From the NCBI GenBank assembly GCA_965197405.1, contig OZ240206.1, positions 1,608,085 through 1,672,084 on the forward strand: a stretch of DNA of 64,000 bases, given 5' to 3'. This stretch comes from Dehalococcoidia bacterium. GTDB lineage: Bacteria > Chloroflexota > Dehalococcoidia > Lucifugimonadales > JAGWBF01. The notes under the pieces are model-generated. The model was not told the origin of the DNA, did no database searches, and saw only the letters and a program-made list of their open reading frames with translations. Position 1 is the first letter of the stretch. The number at the start of each line of letters is the position of its first letter. Position numbers and translations under genes: made by a program. Positions 1,354-62,024 of this stretch are shown here, piece after piece.

Positions 1354-2543
1354 CCAGGGTCTTTTAATTGTGGGGAGGTAGGCCGATTAGCAGCAGTGTC
1401 TCCCAGGGCTTCCAGCCGTAGTGTCGCAGGGCTGCCGATATGTTTTTAACTCCGTTCAGCCTCAACATGCCTATTACCAAGTTCCGCAGCGCCGCCAGCA
1501 GTTGCGGTGCCGACTCCGTTCGCACCTGGCTTTGATCCTCGCCAAAGACCACGTCCCGCACCCAGTGCAGCCGGTTTTCAATGCCCCGGTGCCCACGCCA
1601 TATCCCCAGCAGCCGGGCGGCATCCACCCGCTCCACCGTCTCCCTGCCCTTGTGCCTCCTGGTTCGTTCCATGCAGCAGACCTGTCCCAGACCGGGCCAG
1701 TCCAGGTATTCGTTCAGAACTGCCGATGCCCGCAACCGTCGCCTTTCCCATCGGTCTCCCCGTCGGCCCTCCTGACACGCCTCGGCAAAGCTCTCTCCCC
1801 AGGGCGGCTGCTCAAAGAGGAGACTCACCGCCTCCCTCATCCCAGGCTGATTGTCCTTCAGTGCCCAGAAATAGTCCCCGCCCTGTTCCAGCACTCTCAG
1901 GCTCAACTCCCGCTGCGCATAGAGGGCGTCCCCGGTAACCACCTTCCCCTTCAACTCCAGTCGGGCCAGCAGGCTGGAGGCCAACCCCAGTTCACTCTCC
2001 TTGCGCTCCCCCCTGACCCCCCTTTTGTCCCAGTACCAGGCCGCTCTCCCCAGCATATGCCGCCACCAGCCTCACCCCGGGCAATTCCCTGCCGTGTATT
2101 CCCCGTAGGGCCTTGCCGTCTATGGCAATGACGGCCTCGCCCTCTCCCAAACACTCTTGGGCCCAGCGCCCCAGGGCCGACTCGAAATCATCCACGTCCA
2201 TCCGGCGAAATACGTGATGCAAGGTGGCCACGCAGGGAGTCTGCTCTCGGCTGAATCCCAGCGACCGGGTCAACTGGGGGTGTTCTCGGCCCCACTGGGC
2301 AATGGCGTACAGGCTCCTGGCGCCGCCCAGCATGGCGCAAACTGCCAAGGCCAGAACTGCCCCCAAGGGGTGCCGCACTCCCTTGGGCTTCCTGGGATCC
2401 TCTATCTGGCTCAGGGCATCCAGCAGCCCAGGACCCCAATCCCCAATACTCTCCTCCAACACAACCTTCCTCCACATTCCCCAAAACTCTCACCTAATTA
2501 TCCAACAGCCTGAATATCCCTTTCTACTATTAAAAGACCCTGG
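1354..2543 (-). mobile_element. ISAs1-family insertion sequence (~1.19 kb) with perfect 15-bp terminal inverted repeats
   Basis: CCAGGGTCTTTTAAT at 1354-1368 and its exact reverse complement at 2529-2543 bracket the transposase frames. No flanking target duplication recognisable. Confidence 0.8.
1364..2477 (-). pseudogene. ISAs1-family transposase split into two overlapping frames (1992-2477 and 1364-2056)
   Basis: N-terminal LSQIEDPRKPKGVRHPLGAVLALAVCAMLGGARS and C-terminal IENRLHWVRDVVFGEDQSQVR are ISAs1/H-repeat-type motifs. Frame change maps to an A4G6 run (plus-strand C6T4, 2017-2026): ...GLVLGQK | GVRGERKESELG... Confidence 0.75.
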
Positions 2544-4046: not shown

Positions 4047-4181
4047 CAAGGCCTTTTCATTCTCGGAAGTTGTCATTTCGAGCGCAGCGAGAAATCTAAA
4101 ATTCTTCGGTGGGCAGAACGGCGCGAATAACAAGGACTTTAGACCCCTCGCTCTGCTCGGAGTGACAATGAAAACGACCCG
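4047..4181. repeat. MITE family A copy (short variant)
   Basis: Termini CAAGGCCTTTTCATTCTC ... GACAATGAAAACGACCCG; internal arms GTCATTTCGAGCGCAGCGAGAAATCTAAAA and TTTAGACCCCTCGCTCTGCTCGGAGTGAC. Confidence 0.7.
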
Positions 4182-7680: not shown

Positions 7681-9381
7681 ATGAAAGTCCTGCGCCTATT
7701 GACTCTAGCCCTGGCGCTCCTGCTGGCCGTGGCCTGCGCCGGGGAGAGTCCCACGGCTGTCCCCACTGCCATACCGACGGCCACGCCGCCCGCCACCCCG
7801 GACTTGGAAGCGACGGTGCAAGCTATGGTGTCCGCCGCTCTCCCCACGGCAGCGCCTACCCCCACGCCGGACATTGACGCTACCGTCGAGGCCCGTGTAG
7901 CTGCCACCGTCGCTGCTATGCCAACTCCCACTGATACGCCTATCCCAATACCGACACCTTTAACCACCACGACACCCATGTCCGTCCCAACCGCTACACC
8001 CACGCCGACGTCTATTGCGACGCCGACACCCATTCCGACTATGACACCAACCCCTACGTCTGCCCCAACACCAACCGCTACCCCAGTGTCCACCGCCACA
8101 CCTATCCCTACACCAACTGCGACGCCAACGCCCGCCGCTGCTTTTACCTCTGTCAGTTCCGGACCTCTTCACACATGCGGAGTGAAGACCGACGGCTCCG
8201 TCGCTTGCTGGGGTTTCAATAAGGGCAGGCATGGCAATTTCGCTGGACAAACCACGCCGCCCGCCGGTCCCTTCGCCTCTGTCAGTTCCGGACCTCTTCA
8301 CACATGCGGAGTGAAGACCGACGGCTCCGTCGTTTGCTGGGGCGATAACATATTTGACCAAGTCACATCGCCTGAAGGTCCCTTCACATCCGTCAGTGCT
8401 GGGGCTTATCACACCTGCGGGGTGAAGACCGACGGCTCCGTCCTTTGCTGGGGCTATGATAGTGAGGGTCGGGCCACACCGCCCGCCGGTGCTTTCGCAT
8501 CCGTCAGCGCGGGTCGGTCGCACACCTGCGGGGTGAAGACCGACGGCTCCGTCCTTTGCTGGGGCTATGATAGTGAAGGTCGGGCCACACCGCCCGCCGG
8601 TGCTTTCGCATCCGTCAGCGCGGGTGGGTCGCACGCCTGCGGGGTGAAGACCGACGGCTCCGTCCTTTGCTGGGGCTATGATAGTGAAGGTCAGGCCACA
8701 CCGCCCGCCGGTGCCTTCGCATCCGTCAGCGCGGGTGGGTCGCACACCTGCGGGGTGAAGACCGACGGGTCCGTCGTTTGCTGGGGTTTAAATGAGGACT
8801 TTCGTGGCAATACCGTTGGCCAAGCCACTCCCCCAGACGGTCCTTTCACATCCGTCAGCGCGGGCGGTCTTCACACCTGCGGGGTGAAGACCGACGGGTC
8901 CGTCCTTTGCTGGGGCTATGATAGTGAGGGTCAGGCCACACCGCCCCCCGCCGGTGCCTTCGCATCCGTCAGCGCGGGTAGGTCGCACACCTGCGGGGTG
9001 AAGACCGACGGGTCCGTCCTTTGCTGGGGCTATGATGGTCAAGGTCGGGCCACGCCGCCCGACGGTCCCTTCGCATCCGTCAGCGCGGGTGGGTCGCACA
9101 CCTGCGGGGTGAAGACCGACGGGTCCGTCCTTTGCTGGGGCGCTAACTGGGATGGTCAGGCCGCACCGCCCGCCGGTCTCTTCGCATCCGTCAGCGCGGG
9201 TAGCTCGCACACCTGCGGGGTGAAAACCGACGGCTCCATCGTTTGCTGGGGTTTAAATAAGGACTTTGATTGCAAAATCGTTGACCAAGCCACGCCGCCT
9301 GGCGGAACCGCAGGGACCGGCAGTGCGGGCGCGGCCTATATCCGGGGAGTGAAGACCCCTTGGCTCACTCTATGTCCATGA
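7681..9381 (+). CDS. Secreted/lipoprotein-like protein with Pro/Thr-rich linker and 10-11 RCC1-like (HTCGVKTDGSVLCWG) repeats
   Basis: Signal peptide MKVLRLLTLALALLLAVACAG, about 130 aa of PT-rich low complexity, then blades of 37-43 aa. Ends at TGA 9379-9381. Confidence 0.8.
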   Translation: MKVLRLLTLALALLLAVACAGESPTAVPTAIPTATPPATPDLEATVQAMVSAALPTAAPTPTPDIDATVEARVAATVAAMPTPTDTPIPIPTPLTTTTPMSVPTATPTPTSIATPTPIPTMTPTPTSAPTPTATPVSTATPIPTPTATPTPAAAFTSVSSGPLHTCGVKTDGSVACWGFNKGRHGNFAGQTTPPAGPFASVSSGPLHTCGVKTDGSVVCWGDNIFDQVTSPEGPFTSVSAGAYHTCGVKTDGSVLCWGYDSEGRATPPAGAFASVSAGRSHTCGVKTDGSVLCWGYDSEGRATPPAGAFASVSAGGSHACGVKTDGSVLCWGYDSEGQATPPAGAFASVSAGGSHTCGVKTDGSVVCWGLNEDFRGNTVGQATPPDGPFTSVSAGGLHTCGVKTDGSVLCWGYDSEGQATPPPAGAFASVSAGRSHTCGVKTDGSVLCWGYDGQGRATPPDGPFASVSAGGSHTCGVKTDGSVLCWGANWDGQAAPPAGLFASVSAGSSHTCGVKTDGSIVCWGLNKDFDCKIVDQATPPGGTAGTGSAGAAYIRGVKTPWLTLCP

Positions 9382-9477
9382 GTGTCCACGCGGGCCCACA
9401 CCTGCGGAGTGGAGACCAACGGCTCCGTCGTCTGCTGGGGCGATGACACCTATGGTCAAGCCACACCGCCAGGATAA
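9382..9477 (+). other. In-frame continuation after the TGA encoding one more intact RCC1-like blade
   Basis: Same frame as 7681-9381: VSTRAHTCGVETNGSVVCWGDDTYGQATPPG then TAA 9475-9477. Confidence 0.6.
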
Positions 9478-9975: not shown

Positions 9976-10103
9976 AGATCTCGCGCACCTCCGAGGAGTC
10001 TCACCAGTGGGTCCGGTCTCTTTCCATCAGGCATGTCCGGCGGCTACCCGAGGCATAGCAGTCAGCCGGGACTCCAGACCCCTCGCCCCGCTCGGGGTGA
10101 CAA

Positions 10104-10193
10104 TTACTGATGCGTGAGTAAATATCTAAACCAGTCCCGTCGGGGAAGCGCCAGAATGTAGTGATTCATTCACTTATCAGTAAAAGTCCCCCT
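10104..10193. repeat. Repeat family B copy (short form), abutting a MITE-A fragment (10070-10103)
   Basis: TTACTGATGCGTGAGTAAATATCTAAACC ... GTAGTGATTCATTCACTTATCAGTAA, imperfect terminal inverted repeats. Confidence 0.65.
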
Positions 10194-10262: not shown

Positions 10263-11129
10263 CTACGACGTTACTTCCTTGTACCAGTCCAGGATTTCGC
10301 TGCCGGTCATGAAGACGACGCCCTCGTGTCTCTTGATGTACTCGAATAGCCTGTCGTAGTAGCGTATGCGGTGGGGCACTCCCGTGATGTAAGGGTGGGT
10401 GGAAACCGCCATTATCCTGGCGCTCTCGGCTCCCTCCTCGTACAGCGTGTCAAAATGGTCTCGCGACCGCTCGAATATCTCCGGCGATGCGTGGTGCTGT
10501 ATCAGGTACATCGGTATGTCGTTAATTTCCACCGTGTAGGGTATGGAGATTAGACTGCCGTTTCTCACCTTCATGGGGTAGGGCTGGTCGTCGTTGACCC
10601 AATCGCATACGTACTCGATGCCCTCCTCGGCCAGGATGTCGGGAGTTTCGAAGGTCTCCGCCAAGCCCGGCCCCATCCATCCCCTGGGGGCCTTGCCCGT
10701 AGTCTCCTTGATTAGCTGGATGGACCTCCTTATGACGTCCCGCTCGTCTTCCTCCAGGTTCAGGGTCCTCTGGATGAAGCCGTGGCCGAGAATCTCCCAC
10801 CCGCTCCGGACGCTCTCCTCCACTATGATGGGGTAAGAGTTGCAGATGGAGGCGTTGAGGCTTACGGTCGCCCTTATCCCGTGCTTGTCCAGCACCCGCT
10901 TCATTCGCCAGAACCCGGCCCTCAGCCCGTAGTCGAACCAGCTGAAGTTGGCGATGTCGGGGATTACCGTGACCCCCTGGGGAGCGGGTATCACCGTGCG
11001 GGCCATCGCGGCGTTGATGTCCCATTCCTCCACGTTGATGATGGGCCATACCGCTATCCGGGCGTTGCCCGGGAGCTTTAGGGGTACGCGGTGAAAGAGG
11101 GGGCTATAGTCGGCTCTGGGATTGCTCAT
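10263..11129 (-). CDS. Polysaccharide deacetylase family protein (third paralogue)
   Basis: 288-aa ORF; GNARIAVWPIINVEEW, GFWRMKRVLDKHGIRATVSLN, STHPYITGVPHRIRYY parallel the 253-1164 product. Confidence 0.8.
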   Translation of the reverse strand: MSNPRADYSPLFHRVPLKLPGNARIAVWPIINVEEWDINAAMARTVIPAPQGVTVIPDIANFSWFDYGLRAGFWRMKRVLDKHGIRATVSLNASICNSYPIIVEESVRSGWEILGHGFIQRTLNLEEDERDVIRRSIQLIKETTGKAPRGWMGPGLAETFETPDILAEEGIEYVCDWVNDDQPYPMKVRNGSLISIPYTVEINDIPMYLIQHHASPEIFERSRDHFDTLYEEGAESARIMAVSTHPYITGVPHRIRYYDRLFEYIKRHEGVVFMTGSEILDWYKEVTS

Positions 11130-11153: not shown

Positions 11154-11523
11154 GTGTTTTCAAATGCCTTCTCCCCTAGCGGGAGAAGGTTAGGATGAGG
11201 GGGAGTTGTCTCGATACCTTCACCCTACCACTGTCAACCATTGATGAATGTACTGGCCTATGGTAGTCTGTCCGCGAAACTTGTAATCTGCAAGTTCGCG
11301 GTTGCGAAGAAGTCTCCACAAAGCTCTTTCTGAGTCAGTTGATTGTTTTCTGAGTCCTCGTGCTCTTGATGTAACACTCATCACCCTCACCTCAATCCTC
11401 TCCCGTCAAGGGAGAGGAGGCCCGATACCCCTCATCCCTTCGGCAAGCTCAGAGCAGGCTCCAACCTTCTCCCGTAAGACGTGAAGGAGCTTTGCAAACA
11501 CCCACTGACCACTAGCCACTGGG
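11154..11523. repeat. Cluster of repeat family C modules
   Basis: GTGTTTTCAAATGCCTTCTCCCCTAGCGGGAGAAGGTTAGGATGAGGGGGA (left), CACCCTCACCTCAATCCTCTCCCGTCAAGGGAGAGGAGG, and an inverted CCTTCTCCCGTAAGACGTGAAGGAGCTTTGCAAACAC with a CCACTAGCCACTGG tail. Confidence 0.6.
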
Positions 11524-13652: not shown

Positions 13653-13862
13653 CAGGACCTTTTCATTGTCACTCTGAGCGATAGCGAAGGGTCTAAAGAC
13701 CTGTCTGGCTGTGTGTCGCGCGCAGACGAGTTCCTCGGTGTCGGTTGCTTGCGAGGTATTTTAGATTCTTCGTCGCTCCGCTCCTCAGGATGACACGCGG
13801 TGGAGGCTTGCCTGCTGTAGGCAGGTCTGTATTCACCTGACGCCGAGAATGAAAAGGCCCTG
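13653..13862. repeat. MITE family A copy (full length)
   Basis: CAGGACCTTTTCATTGTCAC ... GAGAATGAAAAGGCCCTG termini with the two internal hairpin arms. Confidence 0.75.
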
Positions 13863-13961: not shown

Positions 13962-14120
13962 CAGGGCACCCCTTTTCAATTGTCACCCCGAGCGGAGCGA
14001 GGGGTCTAAAGTCCTGGCTGACCGTGCTGTCTTGCTTCCGGCTTTTGTTAGGCGCCATTTTAGATTCCTCGCTGCGCTCGGAATGACATGGTAGGGGCCA
14101 CGCTGCGTTCGGAATGACCG
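13962..14120. repeat. MITE family A copy (one terminus only, truncated)
   Basis: CAGGGCACCCCTTTTCAATTGTCACCCCGAGCGGAGCGAGGGGTCTAAAG ... TTTTAGATTCCTCGCTGCGCTCGGAATGACA. Confidence 0.65.
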
Positions 14121-14186
14121 AGGGAAGAGACTCGCAGATTGATAACTAAATGACCCTGGGGTCGAGGCACCGCGAAAAGAGAGCTT

Positions 14187-15535: not shown

Positions 15536-15605
15536 GGACTCCTGCGAAAGCAGGAGTGCCGATGGGAAGCGCCAGGGTTTAGTTCTTTGTTCACTCATCG
15601 GTAAA
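15536..15605. repeat. Repeat family B, right half
   Basis: GGACTCCTGCGAAAGCAGGAGTGCCGATGGGAAGCGCCAGGGTTTAGTTCTTTGTTCACTCATCGGTAA. Confidence 0.55.
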
Positions 15606-15640
15606 TGCCCCTGTATAGACCTGGAGGGCTCCCCTGAGGA

Positions 15641-19237: not shown

Positions 19238-19395
19238 CAGGGTCTTTCAATTGTCACCCCGAGCGGAGCGAGGGGTCTAAAGTCCTTGCTTTCTTAGGCG
19301 TGCTGCTATCCGAGCATTTTTAGATTCCTCGCTGCGCTCGGAATGACACGCGGCGGGGGCCTGTATTTACCTGGCGTGAGAGTTGAAAGACCCTG
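19238..19395. repeat. MITE family A copy (full length) with 10-bp target duplication
   Basis: CAGGGTCTTTCAATTGTCACC ... GAGAGTTGAAAGACCCTG; flanks CTTTCAGTCC (19228-19237) and CTTTCAATCC (19396-19405). Confidence 0.8.
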
Positions 19396-19428
19396 CTTTC
19401 AATCCCAGGGCCTTTCCATTCTCGACGC

Positions 19429-20218
19429 TCAGACCTTTGCCAAGCACTACAATCGCTGCCGGCAGTTGGACGCACCGGAGTCGTTGCTGCCCCGCAAGCG
19501 AGGCCCCCGGTGGAAGAGTCGTCGCACCCTGCCCTACATAGAGCAGAAGGTGTTGGAGCAGAGACGCAAGGGTATCAATCGCTATGAAATTTATGCCATA
19601 CTTCAGCCAGTCCTTAAAGACCATACTCCCTTGCCTTTCACCATCTATGCCATCACCAAGAGGCACGGACTGAATCGTCTAACACCACCCATGCAACATT
19701 CTAAACGAAAGATAATCAAGAGCCGGTCTGGGGAACCGGGACATCTGGACCGCCACTACCTGAGCCGGGACCTGATAGTGGGTGCCCGGAAGCGGTATTA
19801 CCTGGTGTCCGTGCTGGACGCCTGTACCCGCATAGCCTGGGCAGAGGTGGTGCCTGATCTCAAGAGCATCAACCTGCTGAATGCAGAGTACGGGATACGC
19901 TTCGAAACCATCCTCACGGACAACGGGAAAGAGGTGGCTTTACGAGGTAATGTGTCCCGACATCCCTTTGAGAGGATGCTCAGTGAGCTTGGCATCAAGC
20001 ATCGGTACACCAGACCCTACCGACCCCAGACCAACGGAAAGGTGGAACGGTTCTGGAGAACTCTGGATGAAGACCTGATAGAGGGGACCACCTTTGATTC
20101 CCTTGAGGAGCTGAGGGAGGAGTTAATGCAATGCCTCTACTACAACACTCAAAGGCCCCACCAGGGTCTTAACGGCAAGACTCCCCTCCAAGCCCTGCAA
20201 CTTTTGTCAATGAATTAG
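19429..20218 (+). mobile_element. IS481-family transposase (rve/DDE) remnant, N-terminally truncated and internally shortened
   Basis: ILTDNGKE...YRPQTNGKVERFWRTLDEDL...YNTQRPHQGLNGKTP core motifs. No HTH N-terminus and no IRs of its own. The ORF's first about 25 codons are translated MITE sequence. Confidence 0.65.
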
Positions 20219-20230
20219 CTAACACTTACA

Positions 20231-20323
20231 ATTTCGAACGCAGCGAAGCGGAGTGAGGAATCCCGGATGCGGGCCTATTGGAGAGAATGGATTTTTAGAT
20301 TCCTCGCTGCGCTCGGAATGACA
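20231..20323. repeat. MITE family A internal fragment
   Basis: ATTTCGAACGCAGCGAAGCGGAGTGAGGAATC... and TTTTTAGATTCCTCGCTGCGCTCGGAATGACA match the long A variants at 50782 and 54667. Confidence 0.55.
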
Positions 20324-20347
20324 TCAGAGGGGGTGTAAGCTATTTTG

Positions 20348-23181: not shown

Positions 23182-23401
23182 CATTCCCATCCGGCGCCGC
23201 GCGGGGCCTATGGCAGACCGCATGGCGGGGCGCAGAGCAGGGCATAGGAGCTTGCCTTGACGGTAAGCAGTGCCGCACTTGAGAAGGAGCCTCCGATTGA
23301 GACAGCTTCTCGACGGGACTCCCGGTGTGCCGGAAGGCGCTCTCAGGAATCGGACCCTTTCGTGCACGGCTGAGGAGATTATCCGGTTATCTCGAGAGCT
23401 T

Positions 23402-24301
23402 ATGCGGGTGGACAAACCCGTTTCTCGCCAGGACATAGCCGGTCGGCTTGTCTTGGGAGATATTTTTGAAGTGGCAAAGTATTTCCCTCCTGCATTTGCG
23501 GACCTTCTTATCCTGGACCCTCCATATAATCTGTCTAAGGATTATCATGGTAACTCTTTCAAGAGGAGGGGCAAGGACGAGTATCGTTCTTGGTTTCAAG
23601 GAACTATAGACTTGCTGGACCCGATGATGAAGCCCGACGCGACGGTATACGTATGTGCAGATTGGAAAACGTCGGCGCTGGTCCTACCAGTACTGGAGTC
23701 GAAGTTTCACGTCCGAAATAGGATTACTTGGGAACGTGAAAAAGGACGCGGGTCAAAGACGAACTGGAAAAACAACACCGAAGACATTTGGTTTTGCACT
23801 AAATCGGACCGGTACTATTTTGACGCTGAGGCGGTGAAGCTGAAACGCAAGGTGCGAGCACCTTACCGGTCCGGGGGAGAGGCTAAGGACTGGACACAAG
23901 AAGAGGACGGTAAGCATCGCCTGACGCACGCATCCAACATCTGGACCGATATAACGGTCCCATTCTGGTCAATGCTGGAAAATACGGGTCATCCCACCCA
24001 GAAACCCGAGAAATTGCTGGCAAAACTGATTCTCGCAAGCTCAAGGCAAGGAGATTTCGTACTTGACCCATTCCTTGGAAGCGGGACCACTGCGGTCGTA
24101 GCAGAAAAGCTGCTACGGTGCTGGTCCGGAGTAGAAATCAACGCGGAATACCTGTGCTGGACGCTCAAGCGCCTTACTGCGGCAAGAAACGACTTGACAA
24201 TTCAGGGGTATGCGAACGGCGTGTTTTGGGAAAGGAACTCATCCCCCAATCAACACCCGAAGTCTGACTCCAATCGGCGTCAGGCGCCGCTATTCTCATG
24301 A
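23402..24301 (+). CDS. Beta-class DNA methyltransferase (N6-adenine or N4-cytosine)
   Basis: Motif IV LILDPPYNL precedes HPTQKPEKLL and motif I DPFLGSGTTAVVA. Start uncertain (ATG 23402; upstream TTG 23297 has an AAGGAG SD). Sequence visibly AT-richer than its flanks. Confidence 0.8.
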   Translation: MRVDKPVSRQDIAGRLVLGDIFEVAKYFPPAFADLLILDPPYNLSKDYHGNSFKRRGKDEYRSWFQGTIDLLDPMMKPDATVYVCADWKTSALVLPVLESKFHVRNRITWEREKGRGSKTNWKNNTEDIWFCTKSDRYYFDAEAVKLKRKVRAPYRSGGEAKDWTQEEDGKHRLTHASNIWTDITVPFWSMLENTGHPTQKPEKLLAKLILASSRQGDFVLDPFLGSGTTAVVAEKLLRCWSGVEINAEYLCWTLKRLTAARNDLTIQGYANGVFWERNSSPNQHPKSDSNRRQAPLFS

Positions 24302-24966
24302 AGTCAAGCTTCTACTACAACGGAAATCACCTCCAGGTAGCCGCGAATATAAGAGATTACATCAATTCCTCACAGGACTTCCTTTCACCACTGACGGCAC
24401 AGAGTACAAGAGCGGTTGGCGACGCGCTCCAATCGCTTCTTTCGGAGAAGTTCGACGCCTTTCTCGGGGATTGGGCCAGAGAGTATTCGAGCGACTTTTC
24501 ACGCCGCGCGATGGCAGATTTGGCGTTCACGGACAAGGAGGGCGTTTACTCTGTGGTAGACGTCAAGACCCACAGGGAAGATACCAAATTCAATATGCCC
24601 AACCTCACGTCGGTCGAACGGTTGGCTCGGTTCTACGAATCTGATACCAACGTCTTTTCGCTCATACTGATGAAATACTCGGTTGAAGGCACGAGGGTCG
24701 CGGTGTCGGAGGTCATATTCTCTCCGATTGAATTCCTAGACTGGGAATGCCTCACCGTTGGCGCGTTGGGTTGGGGCCAAATCCAGATTGCGAACTCAAA
24801 CGACATCCGCGTGATAGACCAGTACTCGAGAAAGAAGTGGATGTTACAGCTATGTGACGTGATGAACGAATTCTATCCAAGAGAGATTGGCAAAATCCGG
24901 GAGAGAATTGACCGATTCAGGACCGTAAGGGAGCACTGGGAGTCGAAGGAAGACATTTGGGCCTGA
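24298..24966 (+). CDS. Candidate type II restriction endonuclease (PD-(D/E)xK)
   Basis: ATG overlaps the methyltransferase TGA (ATGA). 222 aa with ADLAFTD...VVDVKTH, a D...(D/E)xK arrangement. AT-rich like the MTase. No family recognised. Confidence 0.55.
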
Positions 24967-25872: not shown

Positions 25873-25988
25873 TTACTGATACGTGAGTAAGTAAACATCT
25901 AAACCGGTCTCGCCCGCCATTCCTGCGGAAGCAGGGGAGTGACGTTGGGGAAGCACCATGGTTTAGTTATTTGTTCACGCGTCAATAA
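25873..25988. repeat. Repeat family B copy
   Basis: TTACTGATACGTGAGTAAGTAAACATCTAAACC ... central CCTGCGGAAGCAGGGGAGTGACG hairpin ... GGTTTAGTTATTTGTTCACGCGTCAATAA. Confidence 0.65.
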
Positions 25989-26145
25989 AAGCGGAAGCTC
26001 CGCTCCGCCGCGTCATTCTCCGAGGGCGTCTCTGGGGGAGAGACGAGAGCAAACATTTCCTTGTCCCCGGAGCCGCAAACGGGTAGAATGGGAGCGACCC
26101 ACCTATCCCTGACGGGCAAATCTGATACTGATATGGAGGCACGCG

Positions 26146-27309: not shown

Positions 27310-27326
27310 GGGGGCGTGTGGAAAGT

Positions 27327-27423
27327 CCCTTCTCCCCCGGCGGGAGAAGGTTAGAATGAGGGGAAGTCGTTCCAACACCTTCACCCTCACCTCAATCCTC
27401 TCCCGTCGAGGGCGAGGAGGCCC
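27327..27423. repeat. Repeat family C copy
   Basis: CCCTTCTCCCCCGGCGGGAGAAGGTTAGAATGAGGGGA ... CACCCTCACCTCAATCCTCTCCCGTCGAGGGCGAGGAGG. Confidence 0.65.
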
Positions 27424-27462
27424 TATGGCAACGCCTTGGGAAACACGCTGTAAGGGGGAGGT

Positions 27463-31114: not shown

Positions 31115-31142
31115 GTCATTCCTCGCTGCGCTCGGAATGATG
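31115..31142. repeat. MITE family A core hairpin fragment
   Basis: GTCATTCCTCGCTGCGCTCGGAATGAT. Confidence 0.5.
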
Positions 31143-32775: not shown

Positions 32776-32832
32776 CAGTGTCATTCAATCGTCACCCCTC
32801 GCTCCGACCGGGGTGGCAATGAAAAAGCCCTG
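32776..32832. repeat. MITE family A, short derivative
   Basis: CAGTGTCATTCAATCGTCACCCCTCGCTCCGACCGGGGTGGCAATGAAAAAGCCCTG. Confidence 0.55.
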
Positions 32833-33489: not shown

Positions 33490-33599
33490 GGTTCCGAGCG
33501 CAGCGAGGAATCTCAGCTACAGATGAGAGACCCTCCGCTGCGCTCAGGTCTGCCCTTGGCTTGAGCAGGGGGAGACAGTGAAAGGCCTGTATAAGGACG
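33490..33599. repeat. MITE family A, one-ended copy
   Basis: GTTCCGAGCGCAGCGAGGAATCTCAG...GAGACCCTCCGCTGCGCTCAGG...GAGACAGTGAAAGGCCTG terminus abutting the tmk stop. Confidence 0.6.
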
Positions 33600-34218: not shown

Positions 34219-34246
34219 TGATGTAACCCTGAGACCTTTGGAAGTG

Positions 34247-34420
34247 CCTTCTCTCCTGGTGGGAGAAGGTCGGGATGAGGGGGAGGTGATTGTTTTCTCA
34301 GATGTCGTGCCCTTGGCGCAACCCTCATCACCCTCACCCCAACCCTGTCCCGTCGAGGGAGAGGGGGCAGGACTCCCGCTTCCGCGGGAGAACCACTGAC
34401 CACCGGCCACTAGCCACTAA
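34247..34420. repeat. Repeat family C copy with CCACTAGCCACT tail
   Basis: CCTTCTCTCCTGGTGGGAGAAGGTCGGGATGAGGGGGA ... CACCCTCACCCCAACCCTGTCCCGTCGAGGGAGAGGGGG ... CCACTGACCACCGGCCACTAGCCACTAA. Confidence 0.65.
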
Positions 34421-36250: not shown

Positions 36251-36314
36251 CTTCCCCGGCCAAGCGTGGTGCAGCATAGCAGGAAGCATGGCTTCCTTGA
36301 CAGGGCGTGGCATA

Positions 36315-36479
36315 AGGGCCTTTTCATTGTCACCCCGAGCGATAGCGAGGGGTCTAAAGTTCTTCTCCTCAGTGTCGTTTCGGTTGCGAGGCATTTTAGA
36401 TTCTTCGTCGCTCCGCTCCTCAGAATGACACGCGGTGGGGGTCTGCACTCACCCAACGTCGAGAATGAAAAGGTCCAGG
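36315..36479. repeat. MITE family A copy (full length)
   Basis: AAGGGCCTTTTCATTGTCACCCCGAGCGATAGCGAGGGGTCTAAAG ... TTTTAGATTCTTCGTCGCTCCGCTCCTCAGAATGACA ... GAGAATGAAAAGGTCCAGG. Confidence 0.75.
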
Positions 36480-43540: not shown

Positions 43541-43556
43541 AGGGTGTGCAAAAAGT

Positions 43557-43653
43557 TCCTTCTCCCCTGGTGAGAGAAGGCTAGGATGAGGGGGACGGCC
43601 TTGCCGAGGGGAACGCCCCCTCACTCTAACCCTCTCCCGCGAGGGGCGAGGGG
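43557..43653. repeat. Repeat family C copy
   Basis: GTGTGCAAAAAGTTCCTTCTCCCCTGGTGAGAGAAGGCTAGGATGAGGGGGA ... CTAACCCTCTCCCGCGAGGGGCGAGGGGACTTTGCACA (inverted termini GTGCAAAG). Confidence 0.65.
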
Positions 43654-43665
43654 ACTTTGCACATA

Positions 43666-49642: not shown

Positions 49643-49824
49643 CAGGGTCTTTCAATTCTCGACGCCAGGTGAATACAGGTCCCCGCCGCGTGTCATTCCG
49701 AGCGCAGCGAGGAATCTAAAATGCTTGAATAGCAGCACGCCTAAGAAGGCAAGGACATTAGACCCCTCGCTCCGCTCGGAGCCTGCCCCTGGCTTGAACA
49801 GGGGGTGACAATTGAAAGGCCCTG
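49643..49824. repeat. MITE family A copy (full length) with 10-bp target duplication
   Basis: CAGGGTCTTTCAATTCTCGACGCC ... GGTGACAATTGAAAGGCCCTG; flanks CCGCAAAGAA (49633-49642) and CCGCAAGGAA (49825-49834). Confidence 0.8.
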
Positions 49825-50781: not shown

Positions 50782-51000
50782 CAAGGTCCTTTGACTCTCG
50801 ACACTAGGTGAATACAGGCCCCCGCCTCGTGTCATTCCGAACACAGCCCTTCGACAAGCTCAGGATAAACTCCGGAGTGAGGAATCTAAAATGGTGCCTA
50901 ACAAAAACCCGAATCAAGGCAGTACAGCCCAGAACAAGACCGCAGTCAGCCAGGATTTTAGACCCCTCGCTTCGCTCGGGGTGACAGTTCAAAGACCTTG
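50782..51000. repeat. MITE family A copy (long variant)
   Basis: CAAGGTCCTTTGACTCTCGACAC ... GGGGTGACAGTTCAAAGACCTTG; shares an extra internal segment with the 54667 copy. Confidence 0.75.
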
Positions 51001-54666: not shown

Positions 54667-54862
54667 CAGGGTCATTTCATTCTCGGAGTCAGGTAAATAC
54701 AGGCCCCGCCACATGTCATTCCGAACGGAGCGAAGCAGAGTGAGGAATCTGAAATGGCGCCTAACAAAGACCGGAATCAAGGCAGTACAGGCCAGAACAA
54801 GACCGCTGCCAGCCAGGACTTCAGACCCCTCGCTCCGCTCGGGGTGACAGTGAAACAACTCC
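54667..54862. repeat. MITE family A copy (long variant, degenerate right terminus)
   Basis: CAGGGTCATTTCATTCTCGGAGTCAGGTAAATACAGG ... TTCAGACCCCTCGCTCCGCTCGGGGTGACAGTGAAACAACTCC. Confidence 0.7.
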
Positions 54863-54896
54863 GGGATAAGCGGGCCTTGCTCTCGACAGTTGAAGG

Positions 54897-61601: not shown

Positions 61602-61754
61602 TTACTTGCTGATGCGTGAGTAAATATCTAAACCAGTCCCGTTGGTCATTTCTCCGGAAGCAGGAATCCAGCACTTGGTACACTGGACTCCTGCTTTCGC
61701 AGGAGTGACGTCGGGGAAGCGCCAGGATTTAGTGATTCATTCATCCATCAGTAA
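61602..61754. repeat. Repeat family B copy (full length)
   Basis: TTACTTGCTGATGCGTGAGTAAATATCTAAACC ... two central hairpins ... GGATTTAGTGATTCATTCATCCATCAGTAA. Confidence 0.7.
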
Positions 61755-62024
61755 TAGAGGATGCTAAGGGGACATTAGCACGTCCCCTGGCACGAGTCAA
61801 GAAAGCTGCGCGGCGTACAGATTGACAATCCCTTCCCACTATGGTAGTTTGCTAGTGAAATTTTACACAAACGTGACCGTCATCTAACCGGACGGGACCG
61901 GACTGGACAATACGGCGATACAGCAAGGTTACTATCCGAATAGTATGGCCGAATGGTATGACAGACCTTCGGAGCTATCCATTCTCCCGGAGACTCGGCC
62001 CGCCGCGACCGCGAGGTAAATAGC

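Follow-up and report, generated by a model that had tools for sequence, protein, structure and literature searches.

The window analyzed here, a 64-kb stretch of contig OZ240206.1 from a Dehalococcoidia bacterium of the phylum Chloroflexota, contains a family of short intergenic repeats and one insertion sequence (IS) of the ISAs1 family, located at positions 1355 to 2542. [quoted passage not shown] What links the two is membership in the same family or clade; the link does not extend to that particular element. The overall picture is that of an ordinary pairing of a transposon with a miniature transposon, in which the ISAs1 copy of the window is a decayed relative and an unproven source or driver of the repeats. 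What the window preserves is not an active pair but what is left of an IS/MITE partnership of the past.

A search with an nhmmer profile built from the copies reveals eight full members of the MITE family, ranging from 135 to 219 bp, plus fragments, in the 64 kb. All copies are intergenic and lie between long open reading frames (ORFs), which agrees with a preliminary description of this DNA that spoke of an abundant intergenic MITE. They have no coding capacity, and no transposase similarity was found in them. In the typical architecture, two inverted repeats (IRs) of ~17 to 20 bp, each starting with CAGGG, flank an imperfect palindrome made of GTCAYYCCGAGCGSAGCGAGGRRTCTAAA modules; the consensus of the ends is CAGGG(T/C)CTTT(C/T)(A/C)ATT(G/C)T. 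The copies fall into three sub-pairs and are just 65 to 92% identical to each other, so the family must be old.

Three of the eight copies are flanked by target duplications. The copy at 19238..19395 (plus strand, 158 bp), with the ends CAGGGTCTTTCAATTGT and CAGGGTCTTTCAACTCT, has a long hairpin fold (z = -8.1) and lies between CTTTCAGTCC and CTTTCAATCC. The copy at 49643..49824 (minus strand, 182 bp), which is 92% identical to it, lies between CCGCAAAGAA and CCGCAAGGAA, and the copy at 54667..54863 (minus strand, 197 bp), one end of which is degenerate, lies between GGATGAGCGG and GGATAAGCGG. In each case, the flanks match at 9 of 10 positions at a length of exactly 10 nt, and none of the other lengths tested fits as well. 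The 10-bp duplications noted earlier at two copies are therefore real, but their number is three. Their length also fits the family, as had been suggested: the published direct repeat of ISAs1 elements is 10 bp, next to IRs of 14 to 22 bp that start with CAGGG (PMC11946415), and most of the related IS copies discussed below carry 10-bp duplications.

The duplications of the remaining five copies have decayed. The 219-bp copy at 50782..51000 (minus strand) has CAAGG... ends and flanks that agree at 6 of 10 positions; the 210-bp copy at 13653..13862 (plus strand) belongs to the CCTTTTCATT subfamily; the 197-bp copy at 13962..14158 (plus strand) has a 5-nt insertion in its left IR; the 163-bp copy at 36314..36476 (plus strand) has degenerate ends; and the copy of ~135 bp at 4047..4181 (minus strand) is both shortened and degenerate. 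In addition, there is a 57-bp mini-derivative at 32776..32832 (minus strand) that consists of two IRs and one module. Being small, non-coding, intergenic, and present in multiple copies, with IRs of an IS type and duplications of the family length, these repeats are MITEs in the structural sense.

The termini connect this family to the IS. The end sequences quoted in the preliminary description are all present where it had placed them, namely, CCAGGGTCTTTTAATTGT at 1354 to 1371 and CCAGGGTCTTTTAATAGT at 2526 to 2543 of the minus strand for the IS, CAGGGTCTTTCAATTGT at 19238 and CAGGGTCTTTCAATTCT at 49643 for the MITEs, and, in inverted orientation, CAGGGCCTTTCAATTGT at 49808 to 49824 and CAGGGCCTTTTCATTCT at 13846 to 13862. 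The IS does have its IRs there, but the extra C/G that took its ends to 1354 and 2543 is a flanking base, which the right ends of the MITEs lack. Since the real ends of the element are CAGGG...CCCTG, it spans positions 1355 to 2542 on the minus strand (1188 bp). With up to 3 mismatches allowed, the 18-mer CCAGGGTCTTTTAATTGT occurs 6 times in the window, compared to 0.03 occurrences expected from shuffled sequences. The best pair of IS and MITE ends is identical at 16 of 17 positions, as had been reported, and the MITE ends share 14 to 16 of 17 nt with the IRs of the lineage to which the window IS belongs (A-type; CAGGGTCTTTTAATTGT). The similarity covers only the last 17 nt of the element and breaks off right after the terminal repeat.

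Such ends, which agree at 14 to 17 of 17 nt, together with three copies whose duplications measure exactly 10 bp and the presence of the same ends and perfect 10-bp duplications on unrelated cores in many metagenomes, make it very unlikely that the repeats are palindromic units akin to repetitive extragenic palindromes or bacterial interspersed mosaic elements (REP/BIME) that spread in some other way and resemble IS ends by coincidence. That reading would account for the strongly palindromic character of the elements and for the occurrence of the core module alone at several sites. The internal module GTCAYYCCGAGCGSAGCGAGGRRTC is indeed also found solitary, at 10059 to 10105, 31118 to 31141, and 33492 to 33515; the first of these falls within an isolated module copy (GTCACCCCGAGCGGGGCGAGGGGTC, 10049..10106, minus strand) that has no terminal repeat. 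The module may be an independent palindromic unit that was captured by ISAs1-type ends.

The assignment of the IS to the ISAs1 family, proposed earlier, is borne out by domain searches. The frame-corrected protein from the window matches the NCBIfam model NF033564 (ISAs1 family transposase) with 210.6 bits, against a cut-off of 70. Its N-terminal part (DDE_Tnp_1_assoc; PF13808, E = 7.7e-23) is encoded by orfA at 1992..2477, and the DDE catalytic part (PF01609) is encoded by orfB at 1364..2056, in the +1 frame relative to orfA, both on the minus strand. The 17-bp IRs start with CAGGG and fall within the 14 to 22 bp described for the family. One of them, CAGGGTCTTTTAATTGT at 1355..1371 (plus strand), lies at the 3' end of the transposase gene, with the orfB stop codon ~10 nt inside, and has exactly the sequence seen in the A-type relatives. 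The other, CAGGGTCTTTTAATAGT at 2526..2542 (minus strand), lies on the 5' side of the gene and differs by 1 mismatch. At 1188 bp, the element has the usual family size of ~1.2 to 1.3 kb and is 31 to 33 bp shorter than its relatives of 1219 to 1221 bp. The two-frame gene is a caveat to its membership, which otherwise stands.

To judge from its sequence, this IS is a decayed relic. It has no target duplication (its 10-bp flanks agree at just 3 of 10 positions), one mismatch between its IRs, and a shortened length, and its transposase lacks 11 conserved residues of the AYAITSLPPER region through an in-frame deletion that, in the protein alignment, is particular to the window copy. The approximate junction of this deletion, with coordinates read off the DNA, is at 1625..1635 (minus strand). 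The lost block sits just upstream of the RGHWGIEN motif, in which the window protein carries a W-to-R replacement. For these reasons, the IS does not qualify as the autonomous partner that it had been proposed to be. It contains the only ISAs1 transposase gene of the window. What stands of the proposed partnership are the ISAs1-type ends and duplications, which tie the MITEs to the family and the clade and leave the partner itself unassigned to the window copy.

Relatives of the IS come from ENA long-read metagenomes and from GTDB metagenome-assembled genomes (MAGs) of Dehalococcoidia (loci are given as L numbers in the following). Close relatives of the transposase show 67 to 93% amino acid identity, with 87% for the best one among GTDB representatives. 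Across other Dehalococcoidia MAGs and metagenomes, over 30 copies related to this IS have CAGGGTCTTTTAATTGT on both ends and a length of 1219 to 1221 bp, and most of these carry perfect 10-bp duplications (e.g., L002, L003, L006, L009, L011, L016, and L021 to L029). One identical element is found at four separate sites, flanked by the duplications GTCCAGACCG, GGTGAATCGG, GACTCGAACC, and GCCCATCTCC. Sister subclades with ~50% amino acid identity have the IRs CAGGGTCTTTCGATTCT, CAGGGTCTTTCAGTTTT, and CAGGGTCATTTAATTAT, likewise with 10-bp duplications. The “CAGGGTCTTT...” clade is common in Dehalococcoidia, and the CAGGG-type IR is a genuine property of this IS lineage.

These copies also decide on the suggestion that the terminal match is an artefact, either because the IS had inserted into a preexisting MITE or because the ends belong to an IS481-like element. 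The first variant, named in the preliminary description as a case that would overturn the relationship, is ruled out, since over 30 relatives of the IS, located at unrelated sites, carry these IRs at either end and mostly have their own 10-bp duplications. Moreover, another IR pair would find no space, with the stop codon of the transposase gene ~10 nt from one end of the IS and the start codon 66 nt from the opposite end. The second variant draws on a solo MITE end (CAGGGCCTTTCCATTCTCGACGC, 19406..19431, plus strand) that abuts an IS481-like ORF, just as the first draws on the missing duplication of the window IS. The ORF at 19343..20218 (plus strand) encodes a truncated IS481-like integrase core with rve/rve_3 domains; its part from 19432 to 20218 lies inside a broken MITE copy, between the solo right end and the middle part, which nhmmer recovers at 20231..20333 (minus strand; profile positions 15 to 127). 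The other MITE copies have no such gene, and the score of its product against NF033577 (171 bits) is below the cut-off of 224. This gene is an intruder and was rejected as a partner, and the whole suggestion can be set aside as most improbable. The spot itself is rearranged, as relatives have sfsA upstream of the HhH-GPD gene.

Which ISAs1 lineage moved the MITEs is a different matter. A scan of JGI metagenomes for the exact motif CAGGGTCTTTCAATTSTC returned at least 120 loci. Among the matches listed, at least 19 loci have an ISAs1 gene, and at least 13 of the elements are complete, with CAGGGTCTTTCAATTSTC IRs and lengths of 1207 to 1259 bp; at least 17 elements are MITE-like (80 to 204 bp), at least 6 of them with perfect 10-bp duplications. 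One locus, L099, carries the same MITE family as the window with the perfect duplication GGGCATCAGG. Some ISAs1 ends in this set match the MITEs further than the window IS does. An end of L209 is identical to the left end of the MITEs at 22 of 22 nt, an end of L127 matches at 25 of 27 nt, and ends of L127 and L154 agree with the right end of the MITEs at 18 of 18 nt. The preliminary description had allowed that another transposase family might have better-matching IRs; no other family fits, and the better-matching ends all belong to members of ISAs1.

Two sources are about equally likely, each falling somewhat short of probable: the subgroup of the window IS itself and a sister subgroup with TTTCAATT-type ends. 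The A-type lineage of the window IS (IR CAGGGTCTTTTAATTGT) could have supplied the enzyme that mobilized the MITEs in this genome. It accounts for the only ISAs1 transposase in the window, for the best end pair (16 of 17 nt), and for the highest mean match to the left end among the IS types tested (14.6 of the first 17 nt, tied with L209_a). Its IR, with TTTTAA, is intermediate between the TTTCAA and TTTTCA variants of the MITE IRs. Elsewhere, MITEs occur with perfect A-type IRs and a perfect duplication, such as the short element at 10687 to 10820 of L084 (duplication CCGCCGGGAC), and a MITE of the same module architecture in L039 (1149 to 1281), which has no clear duplication, shows the TTTTAATTGTCA end that matches the resident ISAs1 of its genome. 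However, the window copy is decayed, its similarity to the MITEs ends at nt 17 whereas that of other ISAs1 members runs to nt 22 to 27, and the right ends of the MITEs have C at position 16, as in B/E-type IRs, and not G. Further, the surroundings of A-type IS copies in ~30 other MAGs contain almost no members of the MITE family.

With no higher likelihood, the source and mover of the MITEs may have been the other ISAs1 subgroup, outside the window, whose ends read CAGGGTCTTTCAATT(G/C)TCACCC... and to which the window IS would be a cousin. The long matches of L209, L127, and L154 speak for it, as does L099, in which the MITE family of the window occurs with such ends and is flanked by a perfect duplication. 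Over the first 17 nt, the window IS and the metagenomic ISAs1 ends fit the MITEs about equally: the mean number of matches is 14.6 (left) and 13.7 (right) for the window IS and 13.6 (left) and 14.7 (right) for L127 and L177, the best metagenomic ends. Over the first 30 nt of the left end, the means are 16.5 and 22.5, respectively, although with ~60 IS ends compared, the additional match could partly reflect selection of the best case. Against this subgroup, its IS elements come from short JGI contigs of unknown taxonomy, none was found in Dehalococcoidia genomes among the 80 loci kept, and its transposases are 35 to 50% identical to that of the window.

Under either source, the DDE transposase of the “CAGGGTCTTT...” clade, supplied in trans, would bind the CAGGG ends and insert the element at a cut staggered by 10 bp, producing the 10-bp target duplications. 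The core of the MITEs is unrelated to the IS interior, so they are not simple deletion derivatives; rather than by internal deletion, the family would have arisen when a palindromic module acquired IR-like ends. In the metagenomes, the same signature of end and duplication is found on many independent cores. A short element in L039 (8225 to 8377) has ISAs1-type IRs and a perfect 10-bp duplication; the core that it carries between these ends is akin to a second repeat family of the window, described below. A different kind of derivative is seen in L034 (6071 to 6933), where an 863-bp element with an internal deletion and intact IRs adjoins a full ISAs1 copy and has the look of a stage on the way from an IS to a MITE.

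Several observations weigh against the assignment of the repeats to ISAs1-mobilized MITEs. Five of the eight copies are without a convincing duplication, the copies are diverged from each other to the extent given above, and their interior resembles no IS interior. The occurrence of the module alone means that part of the spread of the family could have another cause. The MITE profile has nearly no matches in 1.76 Mb of sequence flanking related IS copies from ~30 MAGs, which argues against a general co-distribution of IS and MITE, and no MITE copies are found in the thiC neighborhoods of the nearest relatives. Mobilization in trans is itself deduced from sequence comparisons. The nearest relatives (ThiC 86 to 92% identical at the amino acid level; 78 to 86% identity in DNA) are too distant, carry no MITE, and are rearranged at the spot in question, so that the comparison gives no clean empty site. 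In agreement with a Dehalococcoidia host, the ThiC protein of the window shares 92% identity with its counterpart in a MAG of this class. “Candidatus Poribacteria” MAGs were retrieved alongside the relatives, suggesting that the habitat is a sponge microbiome.

The transposase gene of this clade is split. ISAs1 elements are usually described as having a single ORF; here, subclades A, B, and C all have orfA in one frame and orfB in another. Their junction in the window, at 2017..2027 (minus strand), coincides with an A4G6 run, CAAAAGGGGGG on the coding strand. This candidate recoding motif, CAA AAG GGG GGT, and the +1 relation of the two frames are kept in the three subclades (L001 to L067), which are ~50% apart in protein sequence, and are also seen in Illumina assemblies. 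Removal of one G from the run yields a 374-aa ORF in the window copy and ORFs of 373 to 389 aa in general, which are colinear with a single-ORF relative from Poribacteria. In both halves, dN/dS is 0.07 to 0.21 at dS of 0.4 to 1.0, and identical split copies with perfect duplications are found at several sites of one genome, indicating recent transposition. The frameshift was also considered as a product of decay; this was rejected in view of the conservation of the split, the purifying selection on both halves, and the presence of the split in Illumina assemblies.

The split probably reflects either transcriptional slippage or a programmed +1 frameshift. The wrong frame results if the ribosome slips by -1 at A AAG GGG, so the required shift would be +1, or the transcript would have to contain one G fewer or two G more. 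In the JGI subgroup (L127, L177, L202, L167, L209, and L126), the split is located elsewhere, at nt ~620 to 660 of the IS, in A6-7G4-6 runs (e.g., AAAAAAAGGGGG); in L127, orfB is in the -1 frame, and the site resembles classical A AAA AAG sites. Taken as a whole, the data tilt toward a broader reading of the “CAGGGTCTTT” clade, in which it would combine conserved recoding (+1, one G lost, or two G gained at CAA AAG GGG GGT in the Dehalococcoidia subgroups and of the -1 type at A6-7G4-6 runs in a soil/sediment subgroup) with a widespread, undescribed radiation of ISAs1 MITEs with 10-bp duplications across environmental bacteria, the family in the window being one branch. The two-frame gene looks like a clade-level variant and gives no ground for exclusion from ISAs1.

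Compared to known systems, the IS shares with the ISAs1 family, including ISAs1 itself, IS1358, the Escherichia coli H-repeat ISEc1, and an element of Frankia, the NF033564 DDE transposase, the length of ~1.2 kb, the 17-bp CAGGG IRs, and, in its relatives, the 10-bp duplication. It differs in the split of the clade's transposase at A4G6 and, for the window copy, in its decay and lack of a duplication. The Frankia element (Francci3_2330/2941) is of the ISAs1 type and has a 10-bp target duplication (PMC11946415). The MITEs resemble other bacterial MITEs with IS-type ends, such as RUP (paired with IS630-Spn1) and MITEAba12, in being short, non-coding, intergenic, and multicopy, with the IRs and duplication length of an IS family, an unrelated core, and a hairpin; in contrast to those, the parent family here is ISAs1, and the window holds old copies that have diverged and show no sign of current activity. 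The split gene is similar to the two-ORF frameshift transposases of IS3 and IS1, in which the DNA-binding part is encoded upstream and the catalytic part downstream, in different frames joined at a short slippery run. However, the shift that it would need is +1 (or one G lost or two gained) at CAA AAG GGG GGT instead of the classical -1 at A AAA AAG.

Searches of the literature, with ISfinder and TnCentral outside their reach, gave no description of an ISAs1-derived MITE or of programmed recoding in ISAs1, consistent with the earlier remark that ISAs1-family MITEs are not a textbook case. The pairing adds ISAs1 to the IS families known to spawn MITEs. For annotators, it tells the nature of the many small intergenic repeats in these Dehalococcoidia genomes and which enzyme family could move them; the practical gain is modest, consisting of repeat annotation and a marker of rearrangement in probably sponge-associated symbionts. 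The split transposase could matter more than the MITE pairing, as split ISAs1 genes would be mis-called as pseudogenes and +1-type recoding at an A4G6 run would be unusual.

The window contains two further repeat families. One is intergenic, found at 11162 to 11430, 27323 to 27426, 34242 to 34377, and 43553 to 43660, and forms the hairpins CTTCTCCCC..GGGAGAAGG and TCACCCTCACC..CTCTCCCG..GGGAGAGG; it has no CAGGG ends. The other (TGATGCGTGAGTAAATATCTAAACC ... GGGGAAGCGCCAGGATTTAGTGATTCATTCA) is found at 10104 to 10186, 15554 to 15607, 25877 to 25991, and 61606 to 61757 and likewise lacks CAGGG ends. Between thiC and thiD, which are adjacent in the relatives L210 and L212, an insertion from 23270 to 24966 holds two ORFs that probably form a restriction-modification pair, one of them DNA methyltransferase-like with a DPPY motif. 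Finally, the region from 8146 to 9470 comprises coding repeats in tandem, ~11 units that recur every 111 nt (CACACCTGCGGGGTGAAGACCGACGGCTCCGTC...), which presumably encode a repeat-domain protein.

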